Shown: in pieces, positions 1 through 20,230 of the stretch | Numbering within the stretch: the first letter of the stretch is position 1 | Layout: every line of letters starts with the position of its first letter | IMG/VR virus record: IMGVR_UViG_2529292920_000016 | Direction: 5' to 3' (one strand) | DNA: 32,229 bases | Source: a virus | Taxonomy: Duplodnaviria > Heunggongvirae > Uroviricota > Caudoviricetes | Translations under genes and position numbers: made by a program | Notes under the pieces: model-generated | The model's database searches: none | The model's input: only the letters and a program-made list of their open reading frames with translations | What the model was told of the DNA's origin: nothing

Positions 1-1119
1 TCAAATAACCAACTTAACCCATTCCTGACCTCGAGTATCGTTATAGCGATCGGTGGTTGCCTGGACTTTATGTCCTAGTAATGTTTTTGTATCAATACCC
101 TGTGCACGGTACAGCCGTTCTGATAGAGAGCGTTGTTCATGAAATGTTGGCGGAGTTTTTCCTGCTGGTGGAATTATCCCAGCCAGATCCCGTGCTTTGG
201 CAAAGTAGTCGCTCAGGTTGTCTTTACTCATCGGCTTCGGTTGTTTCTGGTGCCGACTATGGATTAGATATGGACTTAATATTCTGTCTCGGCACCCATC
301 AATAACTTCTTTTAACGTTATCCCAATGGCATCACAGCGTAGTGTAAGCGGTAACGCCAGACGCATTCCGGTTTTTCCCTGGGTGATATGCAAGTGTTCG
401 TTCCACACATCTGAAAAACGCATGTGGCAAATGTCATCACGGCGCTGACCAGTAACAATCGCAAGAAGCATTGCGTTACGGATAAAGTGTTTTTCAGGCG
501 TTGCATTGTAAATTTTTTGCCAGTCTTCCATGGTGAGCCTGGCTCTGGTTACTTTAGGGATCGGTTTACGGGTAGCCTCCGGAGGATTCCATCCAGGAGG
601 AACTTCCCCTGCATGCTGTGCTTCTTTATAAATATCAACCCATAATCCACGATTTACTCTCGCTGTGCTGACCATGTCTTTATCCAGCCACTCATCCAGT
701 ATTAATGCAAAGTCTCTTACTTCCAGTTCTTTCAATGGGTGGTTTCCCAGACGGGAAACCAGGTATGCAGCCATTCGGGTTTTTTCTTTGTGAGTTGTAG
801 CTGCAATATCTCCATTTTTCAGTCGCGTGTCCTGTATTTTCAGATATCGATCAACCCATGCCTTTAATCTGATACCCCGACGTTTTGTTGCTGACGGACT
901 TTCATCAATTTTGCGCATGAAATATTCAGCTTCTGCTGCAGCTATTCGCTGATTGGCTGTGGAAGCGATTTTTTCTGCCTTACCTTTGTCTGTTCCGAGT
1001 CCGTGAAATTTTCCAGTCACAGGATTTTTATACTGGTAGTAAACTCTGCCAGTTCTGCGATCAAACTTTTCGTAAAGACCGGCTACGTCAGTGCTGTTTT
1101 TTCGTGGCCTCGGTGACAT
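1..1119 (-). CDS. int: Phage integrase, tyrosine recombinase (lambda Int-like)
   Basis: 372-aa ORF, complete within window (stop at 1-3, ATG at 1117-1119). C-terminus ...LLGHKVQATTDRYNDTRGQEWVKLVI resembles lambda Int C-terminus with catalytic Tyr region; overlaps upstream xis-like ORF as in lambda. Confidence 0.88.
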   Translation of the reverse strand: MSPRPRKNSTDVAGLYEKFDRRTGRVYYQYKNPVTGKFHGLGTDKGKAEKIASTANQRIAAAEAEYFMRKIDESPSATKRRGIRLKAWVDRYLKIQDTRLKNGDIAATTHKEKTRMAAYLVSRLGNHPLKELEVRDFALILDEWLDKDMVSTARVNRGLWVDIYKEAQHAGEVPPGWNPPEATRKPIPKVTRARLTMEDWQKIYNATPEKHFIRNAMLLAIVTGQRRDDICHMRFSDVWNEHLHITQGKTGMRLALPLTLRCDAIGITLKEVIDGCRDRILSPYLIHSRHQKQPKPMSKDNLSDYFAKARDLAGIIPPAGKTPPTFHEQRSLSERLYRAQGIDTKTLLGHKVQATTDRYNDTRGQEWVKLVI

Positions 1120-1357
1120 GAGTTAAAATCTCCTTCAGTGCATCATCATCGCCAGTATGAATTTCCGGCGCAATTCCCGTTTCACCAGGCCCAACAAATA
1201 CTGCTCGGCGATCTATCAGCCAACGCCCACGAATTTTTTGTGGTCTTGGAACGATGTATCCTAGTTTTCCGTATTTCACCAGGGTAGTGTTTGTTATTGG
1301 GAGACTGAACCGTTTTGGTTTCCACTCGTCGAGCGTTATCAGGTACTGTTCGCTCAT
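1088..1357 (-). CDS. Excisionase-like small protein (Xis)
   Basis: 89-aa ORF from ATG at 1357 with GGAG about 9 nt upstream; overlaps int start by ~30 nt (xis-int arrangement). Small basic protein at the expected position; family assignment by position and size. Confidence 0.55.
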   Translation of the reverse strand: MSEQYLITLDEWKPKRFSLPITNTTLVKYGKLGYIVPRPQKIRGRWLIDRRAVFVGPGETGIAPEIHTGDDDALKEILTHVTEATKKQH

Positions 1358-1418
1358 GGCTATCACTCCGGAACGCGCCAGTTGCAGAATATCAACGACA
1401 ACTGGCGACGGTTGAACA

Positions 1419-3890
1419 TTAAAAATCAGCCTGATTCGGGATCAGTTTTTGCCAGATAGCTGAAACGTATTTTGCCTGGTGACGAGCGTCATCAAGTGCA
1501 TTATGGCGCTCACCTTCGAATGGAATAGCCGTTCTGGCATCGAAGTCTATGGCTTTCCCCAGCTCAACGATTGTGCGTACATCGCGATCGTTGTAGTAAC
1601 GCCACGGGCAGGGGATCCCCTGCCGTTCGTATGAACGGCGCAAAATCGTGTTGTCGAAGTTGGCTCCATTTCCCCAAACCTGAACAAAAAATTCACCGGA
1701 GTTTTCGTCGATAAATTCCCGCAATTGTAACAGTGCATCATCTAACGGGATTTCATCGGTCATAATGGCAGATTGCGCTTCGCGTGATTGCTTAAGCCAC
1801 CATTTAATGGTGTCCCGATCAATGACTCCGCCAGCAGTTTCCAGATCGATAGTCTTACTAAATTCCGGTCCCATATCTCCGGTTTGCGGATCGAAAAATA
1901 TTGCACCTATTGAGATGATCGGGGCATCAGGATTTTTTCCCATGGTTTCAAGGTCGATCATTAGATGGTCACACGTCCTGCTGGTGGATGTGATTTCGTG
2001 ATGACCGTTCACCTTAATTGAGTGATCTGCCGTCTCGCCAGTCTCATTATCGCTATTGTGATGCTGATTGCCGCCAGTGTTCTCCTTGTGTGGATGCTCA
2101 GCGCCTTCCATTTCCTCCGGATCATCTTCCTGAACTTCAACCTGATACTCTTCATCGAATGTTTCCTGGTATGTTGCGTCGCCCATCACCGCACCACAAT
2201 CAGGGCAGTTGCCGCCGCCGGTCTGACCGCAGGCGGTGCAGACTTTTTCCACTTCCTGTTGCACTACTGGTTCAGGTAGTTTCGTTTCTGGCTCGTTTTG
2301 TTGCGTATTTGGGCTGTTTTGTTCCGCTTTCTGGTCGTTCTGTTCCGTTTCTTGCTGGTTCTGGTTCACAGAATCGCGGGTTTCAATCCCCTTCACCCAT
2401 TTCGGATCATTCGGATCGCTAACCCCTGCAACAAATTCACCACGTGATACTGCAAGCAGTTCATCGGCGTCAGGCTGGCTGATATTGGCTGCCTGCATAA
2501 TTTTGTTTACTTCGTCAGCGGTAACTTTTACCGGCCCTGGTTGTGCGGTCGTGTCAGATGCACCAGTATTTTGTTGTGAACCTGAGTATGTACCGTTTTT
2601 GCGGGCGAAATATTCTTCTTTCGTGATTTCAGTAGCCCCTGTAGCCAGTGCCTTATCCAGACCAGAAAGTTTGTTTGCGCGACCGTATTTTTCGCTATCC
2701 TTGTCGGTGAAGAGGAAGTAGAACGGCCCTTCACGCTCTACAGATGGTTCGACTTCCACTTTGCATTCGGTTTTTTCGTTGTCTGGAATTGCCGTTTCCA
2801 CTGCATCAGTTTCTGGTACTGGCGACGAGAGAGTATCAGTTGCGCTCTGATTTCTTCCTTCATCTTCAAACACGCCCTTTGTAGTCAGGTATTCAGTAAT
2901 GTATTTGTTCAGTGCCACAGGGTCTTTGTGAATGTCGATCGGACGTTCACGGACAAGGCCAAAAATAGTCTGGCGGTCGTAGCGAAGGGCATCAGGCTGT
3001 TTGCGCATTGATGCCGAGATACGCTTCCAGTCTTCGCGGTCGTTGTCGATAACTTCTTTTTTTGCCCAGCGATGGATGCTGCCGTCAATGTTTCCGGCAT
3101 CCACATCACCAGGCCAGAGAGCGTAGGCCAGTTCGTCATCCAGTGTTTTCCATGTCTGCTTGTATTCGCGATGAGTGGCAGCAATGACCGGGCTGATTTT
3201 TCCTGTTGAATTTTCAGTGTTCTGTTGATTGGCTCTGGCGCGGGCGAGATCAACAACAGACGTGTATTTTCCGGTTTCCTTGCGTTCACCTTCGCGACGT
3301 TTTTTCCAGATGCGCATCTCTGCCTGAATTTCGGGCCATTTGGCACCAGGCTTACATTTATGCTTAACCCACCCGATGGCATGCAGCTTAAGCTCCGGAT
3401 ACATGGCGTTAACTTCTGGCATTTTCATCAACGCTTCAACGATATGTCCGTCGAATGTTGCCATGTCTTCCTGCAACAATTCCTGTGCGCTAATCACCAT
3501 ATCAACGGTGATGTTTTCACATGTGTCGAACTTAACCATGACAGCGTTCTGTACTTCAGGGGCCAGCTTGTCAAAAGTGACGTTCATCGGATCGGATTCA
3601 GTCTCAACCGGGACAAAAGAAGCAGAATCCTCATCCCAGCGGTTTTCCTGCATATATTCAGCATCCCATGAATCGAGGGCAGGGCGGGGTATGCCAGGTT
3701 TATCCTCGCAGACAATAAATTTATAAGCGCAGTCCTGAGCAGCCGGATAATGTTCCAGGAATTGCCAGTGAAATTTTGCTCGAGCACGGCGTTCGTCGCC
3801 AGCTTCAATGGCTGTGGCTACAGCCACAGCGCCTTCTTCCCTTGTTGCCAGTTCGTCAGGAATAGCGGCGCAAATAAAGACTTTACTCAT
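1419..3890 (-). CDS. Large exonuclease-like protein with C-terminal DnaQ/DEDDh-type 3'-5' exonuclease domain (family often annotated exodeoxyribonuclease VIII-like in E. coli prophages)
   Basis: ORF track 1419..3926; likely start at internal ATG (MSKVF...) with GAGG upstream. C-terminal ~200 aa has DEDDh-like motifs (MIDLETMG..., ...HNALDDARHQAKY). Central Cys4 zinc-ribbon-like CTACGQTGGGNCPDCG and Q/N/E-rich low-complexity linker. Confidence 0.6.
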   Translation of the reverse strand: MSKVFICAAIPDELATREEGAVAVATAIEAGDERRARAKFHWQFLEHYPAAQDCAYKFIVCEDKPGIPRPALDSWDAEYMQENRWDEDSASFVPVETESDPMNVTFDKLAPEVQNAVMVKFDTCENITVDMVISAQELLQEDMATFDGHIVEALMKMPEVNAMYPELKLHAIGWVKHKCKPGAKWPEIQAEMRIWKKRREGERKETGKYTSVVDLARARANQQNTENSTGKISPVIAATHREYKQTWKTLDDELAYALWPGDVDAGNIDGSIHRWAKKEVIDNDREDWKRISASMRKQPDALRYDRQTIFGLVRERPIDIHKDPVALNKYITEYLTTKGVFEDEGRNQSATDTLSSPVPETDAVETAIPDNEKTECKVEVEPSVEREGPFYFLFTDKDSEKYGRANKLSGLDKALATGATEITKEEYFARKNGTYSGSQQNTGASDTTAQPGPVKVTADEVNKIMQAANISQPDADELLAVSRGEFVAGVSDPNDPKWVKGIETRDSVNQNQQETEQNDQKAEQNSPNTQQNEPETKLPEPVVQQEVEKVCTACGQTGGGNCPDCGAVMGDATYQETFDEEYQVEVQEDDPEEMEGAEHPHKENTGGNQHHNSDNETGETADHSIKVNGHHEITSTSRTCDHLMIDLETMGKNPDAPIISIGAIFFDPQTGDMGPEFSKTIDLETAGGVIDRDTIKWWLKQSREAQSAIMTDEIPLDDALLQLREFIDENSGEFFVQVWGNGANFDNTILRRSYERQGIPCPWRYYNDRDVRTIVELGKAIDFDARTAIPFEGERHNALDDARHQAKYVSAIWQKLIPNQADF

Positions 3891-4359: not shown

Positions 4360-4927
4360 TATCGCGTCCTCAACAATGAATTTTGTGATGCAGTGCCTGG
4401 TGCCTCCAGGTGACGTTAACCAGTTAACAATTAACGCCGGATACAGAGAATCCACCCATAACACTGTTTTTGGTTTTAACTGTTCCGCGTGCGCTCAGCC
4501 GCATTCACCACATCACAAAATTCACTTTAAAAAGGGCGGCAGAGCAGTCACGGAGTAAAACTGATACCGCCAAACGTCACCAGAAAATTGATAACAGAGG
4601 GCGTTGCAGCGGGGTTGTCACTTAAGCGTATGGTCAACCTGACAACCCGGTGTCCTCAACGGGGGAAGGAATAACCCCGCCATACTTACCGCCGCGCCAT
4701 TTCGCGGATTGCCACAACCGGAAGCGCACGGTCGACGAAAATTTAACGACAGGCTATCTATGAACCAGCTACCTCGCCGTGCGCTTTCGCGTTATGGTCT
4801 GACTTTTCAGGGACATATCCTTTCAGTAAACTGTCAGTGCCGGATGCTCACCCGTGTCCGGCGCACGCACTCCACCTCATCCGTGGAGAACTCCTTAATT
4901 ACCAACCTTAGCTTCGTTGGTTAGCTA

Positions 4928-18006: not shown

Positions 18007-19056
18007 ATGATTAATACTGTAAAAATATCCAGTTGTGAGTTAATCAACGCTGATTGCCTGGAATTTATCTAGACCTTACCGGAAAACTCTGTCGATCTGA
18101 TAGTCACAGACCCGCCATACTTTAAAGTGAAGCCCGAGGGCTGGGATAACCAGTGGGAGGGCGACGATGATTACCTGAAATGGCTGGACCAGTGTCTGGC
18201 GCAGTTCTGGCGGGTACTGAAGCCTGCCGGAAGTCTTTACCTGTTCTGTGGTCATCGCCTGGCATCTGACACCGAAATCATGATGCGTGAGCGCTTTAAT
18301 GTGCTGAACCACATTATCTGGGCGAAGCCGTCCGGACGCTGGAACGGGTGCAATAAGGAAAGTCTGCGGGCGTATTTTCCGGCAACAGAGCGCATTCTGT
18401 TTGCAGAACATTATCAGGGACCGTATCGCCCGAAAGATGATGGCTATGTGGCACAGGGGCGCGAGCTAAAACAGCACGTCATGGCCCCGCTGATTTCTTA
18501 CTTTCGTGATGCGCGTAAATCACTGGGAATAACGTCAAAACAGATAGCGGAAGCCACCGGAAAGAAAAACATGGCTTCGCACTGGTTTGGTACCAGTCAG
18601 TGGCAGTTACCGAACGAGGGTAATTACAACAAATTGCAGGCGTTGTTTGCGCGTGTTGCGGCAGAAAAACATCAGCGCGGGGAACTGGAAAAGCCACACC
18701 ACCAGCTGGTCAGCACATACAGTGAGCTGAACCGGCAGTATACGGAACTGCTGAGTGAATATAAAAATTTGCGGCGGTATTTCGGTGTGACGGCGCAGGT
18801 TCCGTACACCGATGTCTGGACGCATAAACCGGTGCAGTACTATCCAGGGAAACATCCGTGCGAAAAACCGGCAGAAATGCTGCAGCAGATAATCAACGCG
18901 AGCAGTCGTCCGGGAGACCTGGTTGCAGATTTTTTTATGGGTTCAGGTTCAACGGTAAAAGCGGCGATGGCACTGGGGCGTTGTGCGATTGGTGTTGAGC
19001 TGGAGACAGGACGTTTTGAACAGACAGTCAGGGAAGTTCAGGATTTAATCGTTTGA
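18007..19056 (+). pseudogene. Dam-like N6-adenine DNA methyltransferase interrupted by an in-frame amber (TAG) codon
   Basis: From ATG 18007: MINTVKISSCELINADCLEFI-TAG(18070-18072)-TLPENSVDLIVTDPPYFKVKPEGWDN..., continuing in frame to 19056. DPPY catalytic motif and C-terminal FFMGSGST AdoMet-binding motif are present. ORF track only reports 18127..19056, which starts after DPPY. Confidence 0.7.
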
Positions 19057-19105
19057 AACGGATGGGATTGCAGAATTAATTACGCACCATTATTATTCTG
19101 CTACC

Positions 19106-19181
19106 GGCCCTTTAGCTCAGTGGTGAGAGCGAGCGACTCATAATCGCCAGGTCGCTGGTTCAAATCCAGCAAGGGCCACCA
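19106..19181 (+). tRNA. tRNA-Ile (anticodon CAT; ileX/ileZ-like lysidine tRNA) or tRNA-Met
   Basis: Cloverleaf: acceptor GGCCCTT/AAGGGCC, D arm GCTC...GAGC, anticodon loop CTCATAA, T arm GCTGG-TTCAAAT-CCAGC, 3' CCA encoded. Closely resembles E. coli ileX. Confidence 0.85.
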
Positions 19182-19278
19182 TCACATACCGCCATTAGCT
19201 CATCGGCAGAGAGCGTCAGCTTTCGAAACTGGCTGTGTGGGGCCCGGGTCCCCGATGGCAATCCATTATCTGCATTAT

Positions 19279-19355
19279 GCGTTGTTAGCTCAGCCGGACA
19301 GAGCAATTGCCTTCTAAGCAATCGGTCACTGGTTCGAATCCAGTACAACGCGCCA
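19279..19355 (+). tRNA. tRNA-Arg (anticodon TCT)
   Basis: Acceptor GCGTTGT/ACAACGC, D arm GCTC...GAGC, anticodon stem ATTGC/GCAAT with loop CTTCTAA, T arm CTGG-TTCGAAT-CCAG, 3' CCA encoded. Confidence 0.85.
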
Positions 19356-19540
19356 TATTCATTCTTCCAGATTTCTTCCGGCAGAGCCTTATACTGGAAT
19401 ATACTTGGCTCAGGATATTGTTGAAAATATTATATGTTTGTCAAAAATAAAAGTTCTGTTAAGTATTGATTGAGTGTTTGTTATACGGTCTAATGGTTTT
19501 TTCAGTATTAAATATTTATCATTCATATGGTGTGGGTAGA

Positions 19541-19819: not shown

Positions 19820-20196
19820 ATACATATCTGGATTATCACCTGTTACGGTAAAAAGTGATTGCTTACTGTTTTTGTGAATGGCATTGCAGCAGCCGGATAA
19901 TGTCAGTGCTGGCTGACTGTGTACTGGTGGCGGGTGTGGTGGTTGTTGCTTTCCCGTTGCTGAAAAAGAAAACGCCAGACTGTTAGTCGGAGAAATTTTT
20001 AAATACTTCACAATTCAGGCGGTTGACTGTTGTCTGGTTTGCGGGGAGTTTGTTAAAAGAAACTGGCATGGTGAATCCACCTGTGCGGAGGGGCAATCAG
20101 CGAGTAGGTATATGGGATAATCGCGGATTCAGGTGCTGGTACTGAATTCACCGGGAGGCACCCGGCACCATGCAATGGCACATAGCGCCACTCTCC

Positions 20197-20230
20197 AGCC
20201 CCTCTCCGGAGGGGCTGTTTATATTGATTT
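20197..20230 (+). terminator. Rho-independent terminator
   Basis: AGCCCCTC-TCCG-GAGGGGCT hairpin followed by GTTTATATTGATTTT. Confidence 0.5.

Follow-up and report, generated by a model that had tools for sequence, protein, structure and literature searches.

The element between the two intact tRNA genes of this lambdoid prophage is most probably a tRNA pseudogene, a decayed argN lying between an intact ileZ and an intact argO; we put the probability of this reading at about 0.88. The window, i.e. the whole stretch of DNA that was analysed, has a length of 32,229 nt, and ARAGORN at default settings identified exactly two tRNAs on it, both on the plus strand. The pseudogene reading is based on homology to argN, on the lesions of the element, on its sub-threshold scores and on the unequal variation of the middle and the outer elements of the cluster. 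The cluster is composed as follows:

19106-19181, plus strand: ileZ-type tRNA, anticodon CAU at 19139-19141 (ARAGORN; Rfam RF00005, 72.5 bits)
19182-19188, plus strand: spacer 1, TCACATA (pi of 0.06 across loci)
19189-19265, plus strand: argN relic of 77 nt, probable pseudogene of tRNA-Arg(UCG), TCG at 19223-19225
19243-19249, plus strand: aberrant T loop CCCGGGT of the relic (canonical TTCGAGT; T54C, T55C, A58G)
19266-19278, plus strand: spacer 2, TTATCTGCATTAT, the same as the spacer of Stx2a_F765
19279-19355, plus strand: argO-type tRNA-Arg, anticodon UCU at 19313-19315 (Rfam RF00005, 70.1 bits)

An earlier note on this DNA had described two well-formed tRNAs, Ile-CAU and Arg-UCU. This was borne out by ARAGORN, which read the anticodons as CAT and TCT, by the Rfam scores (the gathering score of the tRNA model RF00005 is 29 bits) and by homology to ileX. 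The upstream tRNA is identical to K-12 ileX, which is annotated as tRNA-Ile(CAU), at 68 of 76 positions (89%) and has the same anticodon stem-loop. In its acceptor stem, the pair C6:G67 of ileX is replaced by T6:A67, a compensatory change, and the pairs C4:G69 and C5:G68 were found as well. In genomes that share 99.6-99.8% identity with the window, PGAP labels the counterpart of this tRNA as tRNA-Ile. The assignment to Met by ARAGORN was rejected as a literal reading of the anticodon, given the ileX-like body and the PGAP label. Thus, judged by its body, the gene is best regarded as a homolog of tRNA-Ile2(CAU) that is ileX-like rather than tRNA-Met-like. In tRNA-Ile2 the host enzyme TilS turns C34 into lysidine, whereupon the tRNA reads AUA; the prophage tRNA would read this codon once its C34 has been converted in the same way.

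The downstream tRNA showed no non-standard pair in the cloverleaf of the Rfam tRNA model, was called Arg(tct) by ARAGORN and possesses the same anticodon loop (CUUCUAA) as K-12 argU. It is a tRNA-Arg(UCU) for the codon AGA and, by wobble, AGG. Both flanking tRNAs have their anticodons and anticodon loops in common with ileX and argU, the chromosomal rare-codon tRNAs of K-12, but are prophage-borne paralogs whose acceptor and T stems have diverged. To our knowledge, K-12 lacks a UCG isoacceptor equivalent to argN. ORFs that run against the tRNAs or overlap them (minus strand, 19160-19348; plus strand, 19307-19450) were discarded as by-products of the tRNA sequence.

The suggestion that the cluster occupies the position of ileZ-argN-argO in Stx phages was corroborated by a block of 481 nt, which is approximately 90% identical to many Stx2 phages and which, in the records with annotated tRNAs, covers three tRNA genes. 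In Stx2a_F765 (AP012534) these genes are named ileZ, argN and argO, and ARAGORN called the argN of this phage Arg(tcg). A three-way alignment with Stx2a_F765 was colinear and placed the argN counterpart in the middle: ileZ is identical at 76 of 76 and argO at 76 of 77 positions, spacer 2 is unchanged, and the middle element matches argN at 64 of 77 positions (83%), with TCG kept. The gap between ileZ and argO measures 97 nt in the window and 99 nt in Stx2a_F765. Gene order, strand and spacing are those of the Stx-phage cluster (Stx2a_F765, 933W-type phages), as is the position downstream of Q in the late-promoter region, with a methylase. The window differs from the Stx phages in the middle gene, which carries 13 substitutions and falls below the tRNA detection thresholds, and in the DNA following the cluster, where DUF3927, the STnc100 sRNA and iraM are found instead of stx. 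The substitutions relative to argN of Stx2a_F765 are:

19207: G19C, which abolishes the tertiary pair with C56 (in the other D-loop register A20 is lost instead)
19209: 20a C to G, D loop
19216: C27T, giving a T:G wobble
19221: C32T, anticodon loop
19228: G39A, pair 31:39 broken
19236: C to T, variable loop
19238: C49T, giving a T:G wobble
19243: T54C, an invariant base of the T loop replaced
19244: T55C, an invariant base of the T loop replaced
19247: A58G, an invariant base of the T loop replaced
19252: T63C, G:T changed to G:C
19260: G71A, pair 2:71 broken
19261: G72A, pair 1:72 broken

Transitions account for 11 of the 13 differences, and at least seven affect base pairs or single bases with virtually no variation among tRNAs. 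The divergence from Stx2a_F765 is clearly uneven, with 13 of 77 positions changed in the middle and 1 of 153 in the flanking tRNAs (Fisher p=3e-6). Hypermutation or accelerated change was considered as a cause of the 13 differences and rejected, since recombination joints inside the cluster explain the local excess better. By position and by sequence, the middle element is the ortholog of argN.

The earlier note had located a tRNA-like body at 19191-19260, with a D-arm-like GCTC...AGAGC, a TTTCGAA loop and an aberrant T arm. All three elements are present in the sequence (D stem GCTC/GAGC at 19198-19201 and 19211-19214; anticodon loop TTTCGAA with TCG at 19223-19225; T arm TGGGG-CCCGGGT-CCCCG at 19238-19254). 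The location was approximately right, while the exact ends had to be corrected to 19189-19265. Out of 21 cloverleaf pairs 18 are standard (acceptor 5/7, D 4/4, anticodon 4/5, T 5/5). The broken ones are C1.A72, C2.A71 and C31.A39, which the ARAGORN drawing shows as two successive c.a mismatches atop the acceptor stem and one c.a at the lower end of the anticodon stem. The invariant elbow set (G18, G19, T54, T55, C56, A58) is incomplete, with C54, C55 and G58 in the T loop, and the D loop, ATCGGCAGA, has lost G19 or A20, depending on the register. Retained are U8, A14, U33, the anticodon TCG, C56, C61 and the encoded CCA. Thus, the lesions go beyond the T arm noticed before and include the acceptor pairs 1:72 and 2:71, the pair 31:39 and G19/A20.

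A permissive covariance-model search of 151 nt (19150-19300) disclosed a tRNA-like fold in the spacer, as the earlier note had expected: 19189-19262 aligned end to end with the tRNA model and scored 22.2 bits (E=0.01). This value lies below the gathering score and below the 52-58 bits that canonical argN alleles gave in the same kind of search. ARAGORN missed 19189-19265 at default settings and reported it as tRNA-Arg(tcg) with the option -ps (95% threshold). MFE folding was discarded as evidence, because the cloverleaf was not reproduced even for genuine tRNAs, and the z-scores against shuffled sequences (0.10 for the relic, -1.06 for canonical argN) were uninformative. Together with the similarity to argN, the low score, the T-loop defect and the additional lesions supported the proposal of a decayed argN-like tRNA. 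The relic is almost certainly dead and would not be expected to fold, to be matured or to decode as a tRNA. It resembles bacterial tRNA pseudogenes in its cloverleaf remnant, its sub-threshold score, the loss of invariant T- and D-loop bases and its uncompensated mismatches. Unlike the usual ones, it is situated between two strongly conserved functional tRNAs and represents one among at least four parallel decay states of a single slot in thousands of E. coli prophages.

Variation of the cluster was studied in IMG/VR by searching for the 3' end of ileZ and the 5' start of argO. At a distance of 85-115 nt at least 120 loci were obtained, and a second scan with a spacing of 61-84 nt yielded 23 loci. 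Diversity was computed over the 119 loci with full flanks:

ileZ (54 nt outside the search pattern): pi of 0.003
middle element: pi of 0.18
argO (51 nt outside the search pattern): pi of 0.05
150 nt upstream flank: pi of 0.29
150 nt downstream flank: pi of 0.40

The 54 nt of ileZ were identical in 111 of the 119 loci. In eight loci the T stem of argO is altered from CACTGG/CCAGT to CAGTGG/CCACT, and since this change is compensatory, it points to selection on the argO structure. Purifying selection maintains both ileZ and argO.

The alleles of the middle slot fall into four classes. Class A comprises canonical or near-canonical TCG alleles, and class B is the type present in the window. In class C (L002, 2616-2715, and about 35 other IMG/VR loci) the anticodon arm and the variable region are scrambled and the former T arm contains a poly-G tract of G5 to G14, depending on the locus; the acceptor, D and T stems persist. 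Class D has a slot of 80 nt (L131-L153), from which the anticodon arm is deleted, and shows a compensatory acceptor change from T7:A66 to C7:G66. The Rfam tRNA model gave 52-58 bits for canonical alleles, 45.3 bits for an otherwise canonical allele with the T loop GGCGGGT (L058) and 43.4 bits for an allele with A6.A67, A52.C62 and G58 (L008). Class B alleles scored 26.4, 23.5 and 22.2 bits, two further class B loci being unreported, and class C alleles gave no match to this model. Alleles of the L016/L008 type, which occur in more than 20 IMG/VR loci, are still called by tRNA finders with 43 bits compared to about 55; some annotated argN genes may therefore already be impaired. Another locus (L021) possesses an argN-type body with the anticodon TCT instead of TCG (G36 to T), which would be an anticodon switch duplicating the specificity of argO.

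For class B, the comparison covered 14 loci taken from IMG/VR and complete genomes. The 77-nt body contains 7-8 segregating sites (G18A, C25T, T27C, A29T, G43A, G52A, C/T55, C75T), the spacers contain one, and ileZ and argO none (body 7/77 vs ileZ and argO 0/105; Fisher p=0.002). Among these sites no compensatory changes were found; all are damaging or neutral, several break further pairs, and C75T converts the CCA end of one member to CTA. C55 of the window (19244) is derived within the class, the other members having T, and the T55 sister alleles were called by ARAGORN at default settings.

Some loci (L111, L030, L017) agree with the window in at least 99% of 400 nt upstream, but contain a canonical argN (the middle being 80% identical to that of the window) and unrelated downstream DNA. 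Because near-identical upstream flanks co-occur with canonical argN and different downstream DNA, the cluster is regarded as a mosaic joint, at which recombination anchored in the invariant tRNAs unites middle alleles that differ greatly in age. In three IMG/VR loci argO itself is broken right after the anticodon loop (...CTTCTAAGCA/GCTGTGGTT...), which indicates a probable recombination or insertion joint inside this gene.

The classes were also counted in 5,426 complete E. coli genomes, the PGAP annotation referring to the matches listed:

class A, canonical-like argN: 1,216 genomes, 2,429 places, annotated as tRNA-Arg
class C, scrambled: 1,863 genomes, 2,336 places, no annotation
class D, arm-deleted: 393 genomes, 412 places, no annotation
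class B, window type: 87 genomes, 94 places, no annotation

The window type is the rarest class and class C by genomes the commonest state of the slot; five of the six class D strains listed belong to O157. In these 5,426 genomes approximately 2,840 decayed copies face approximately 2,430 canonical-like ones, so that about half of the classified slots have decayed, by at least three routes. Beneath the window-type allele no annotated feature was present among the 40 matches listed (87 genomes match). Unannotated argN relics thus seem to be common in E. coli prophages. In the RefSeq annotation of strains 97-3250 and E2348/69 (L003 and L130) the numbering of the locus tags leaves out one number from tRNA-Ile to tRNA-Arg (RS15535 to RS15545; RS06605 to RS06615), which hints that an earlier annotation had a feature at the relic that was later dropped.

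We weighed other explanations for the middle element. The one that survives best, though we consider it improbable, is that selection keeps the relic as a tRNA-like structural spacer for processing or as a tRNA-like decoy. In the former case RNase P or other processing enzymes would recognise the acceptor/T-arm helix, so that ileZ at its 3' end and argO at its 5' end are correctly matured from a shared transcript. The dead argN would then be an exapted 'punctuation' element that directs cleavage by RNase P/E, or one that titrates a tRNA-binding factor of the host or the phage. Such a role would explain why four independent decay routes spare the ends of the element and why there is no clean deletion. 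The relic was never seen fully deleted, as might occasionally be expected of a useless sequence: in IMG/VR ileZ and argO were in no case separated by 60 nt or less, compared to at least 143 loci with 80-110 nt, and JGI metagenomes revealed no gap of 60 nt or less either, in scans that had no positive-control count. Moreover, the centre of the slot is variable in all four classes, while the 5' acceptor strand and D arm as well as the T-stem 3' strand, the acceptor 3' strand and CCA are best conserved, and the arm-deleted class shows the compensatory exchange of T7:A66 for C7:G66. On the other hand, recombination or gene conversion with its anchors in the invariant tRNAs would likewise leave the ends conserved, and mosaic joints inside the cluster are evident. 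The lineage of the window has lost both terminal acceptor pairs, and CCA has become CTA in one member. In the scrambled class, variants fall on U8, on the acceptor 3' strand (GATGACGG, GATAGCGG) and on the T stem at about the same frequency as on the centre. The fold is furthermore no more stable than that of shuffled sequence (z=0.10).

We give even less credence to a middle element that is still functional as an unorthodox tRNA-Arg(UCG). It does have the loop UUUCGAA with U33 and a purine at position 37, fully paired D and T stems, an encoded CCA, and C35 and probably A20, which we take to be identity elements for ArgRS; the relaxed threshold at which ARAGORN detects it is only 5% lower. However, T54, T55 and A58 are replaced, G19 (or A20) is lost and the terminal acceptor pairs are broken, the score is 22.2 bits against 52-58 bits of canonical alleles, and no PGAP feature stands among the 40 matches listed of the 87 genomes. 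In addition, damaging, uncompensated variants segregate in the lineage while the neighbours are invariant.

That the tRNA-likeness of the spacer is due to chance or to a sequencing or assembly artefact is next to impossible: the covariance match alone is weak (E=0.01 in 151 nt) and the MFE z-score is 0.10, but the element is 83% identical to argN in the orthologous slot, and the identical 97-nt sequence was found in dozens of independently assembled complete genomes and IMG/VR contigs.

The genome environment is that of a lambdoid prophage. The closest complete genome, EPEC O127:H6 E2348/69 (99.7% identity over 4.6 kb), has the order DUF968, RusA, DUF1133, small ORF, DNA methyltransferase, tRNA-Ile, tRNA-Arg, DUF3927, iraM and SASA esterase. 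The DUF1133 protein corresponds to PHROG 753 (phrog_753), 'anti-termination protein Q-like' (E=3e-78), and weakly matches Pfam Phage_antitermQ; a terminator-like hairpin resides at 17843-17860 upstream of the cluster. Because of the Q-like match and this hairpin, the cluster is assigned to the Q/late-promoter region of a stx-less lambdoid prophage, in agreement with the earlier description of a cluster downstream of a Q-like gene and a tR'-like terminator. Lambdoid phages carry tRNA genes downstream of Q (PMC3636060), and three tRNAs are located next to stx2a (PMC7946995). The two features immediately preceding ileZ are:

18007-19056, plus strand: N6/N4 DNA-methylase gene with an amber codon (TAG) at 18070-18072
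19068-19096, plus strand: candidate sigma-70 promoter TTGCAG-N17-TATTAT, ending 9 nt before the 5' end of ileZ

The amber codon, already mentioned in the earlier note, is real: codon 22 of the methylase gene is TAG in the window and CAG in E2348/69 and strain 97-3250. The Q-like gene (16806-17294) exhibits a 2-nt deletion at about 17255 relative to E2348/69, causing a frameshift that replaces the last ~29 residues. This frameshift and the amber codon suggest that the prophage copy is degenerating more generally. It had also been stated that the tRNAs cannot act as suppressors. Indeed, none of the anticodons (CAU, UCG of the relic, UCU) reads UAG, and the amber-interrupted methylase therefore stays interrupted.

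The TTG core and TTATTAT of the candidate promoter were invariant in the 119 loci, while nearby columns had pi values of 0.3-0.5. A generic consensus promoter scan of the plus strand upstream of the cluster found nothing, the candidate -35 region matching only at 3 of 6 positions. The tRNA cluster may have this promoter of its own beside Q-dependent read-through.

Small RNAs scoring above the Rfam gathering scores were DicF (4534-4585, minus strand, 76.7 bits), the sok antitoxin RNA of a hok/sok module (13133-13299, plus strand, 112 bits) and STnc100 (20037-20226, plus strand, 123.6 bits). In many related loci STnc100 likewise follows the tRNA cluster; in an Stx2a phage it is located after stx2B and adjoins AsxR/AgvB.

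Our explanation for the pseudogene is as follows. ileZ and argO would most likely be kept up as additions to scarce host tRNAs whose codons the prophage over-uses. The middle gene once encoded a tRNA-Arg(UCG) largely redundant with the arginine tRNAs of the host: the abundant host tRNA-Arg(ICG) reads CGA and tRNA-Arg(CCG) reads CGG, so that a UCG isoacceptor would add little. Selection on argN would have lapsed, and drift would have led to the three broken stem pairs and to the loss of the elbow bases (G19 or A20, T54, T55, A58). The relic is probably still transcribed together with its neighbours, after which it would be excised and degraded. We infer the reason for the lapsed selection, the co-transcription and the fate of the RNA. 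Redundancy would plausibly explain why argN, and only argN, decays repeatedly.

Codon usage was determined for the ORFs of the window with at least 120 aa, which contain per 1000 codons 11.7 ATA, 7.6 AGA, 5.6 AGG, 7.2 CGA and 10.8 CGG. In K-12 the usage per 1000 is about 4-5 for ATA, 2 for AGA and 1.5 for AGG. Set against this approximate host baseline, ATA, AGA and AGG would be about 2.5-4 times and CGA and CGG about twice as frequent as in the host, which is a weak indication of differing demand. The fact that CGA and CGG are also somewhat enriched counts against the codon-usage argument for the redundancy of argN.

A full-text search of the accessible literature for ileZ, argN and argO in phages retrieved no relevant paper and none on the parallel erosion of argN. 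The annotation of the window can be settled as two functional rare-codon tRNAs and one unannotated pseudogene, with no suppressor. The relic represents ordinary gene decay, a tRNA pseudogene within a phage tRNA cluster of a familiar type, and current understanding stands; the parallel erosion of argN beside strictly conserved neighbours is a tidy evolutionary observation and no surprise. Standard pipelines leave thousands of such relics unannotated (no PGAP feature in the rows listed). In lambdoid prophages the argN slot is eroding at large scale while ileZ and argO are nearly invariant, which makes the cluster a natural example of differential selection on phage-borne tRNAs. This suggests that decoding of AUA and AGA/AGG, not of CGA/CGG, is what the prophages are selected to supply.
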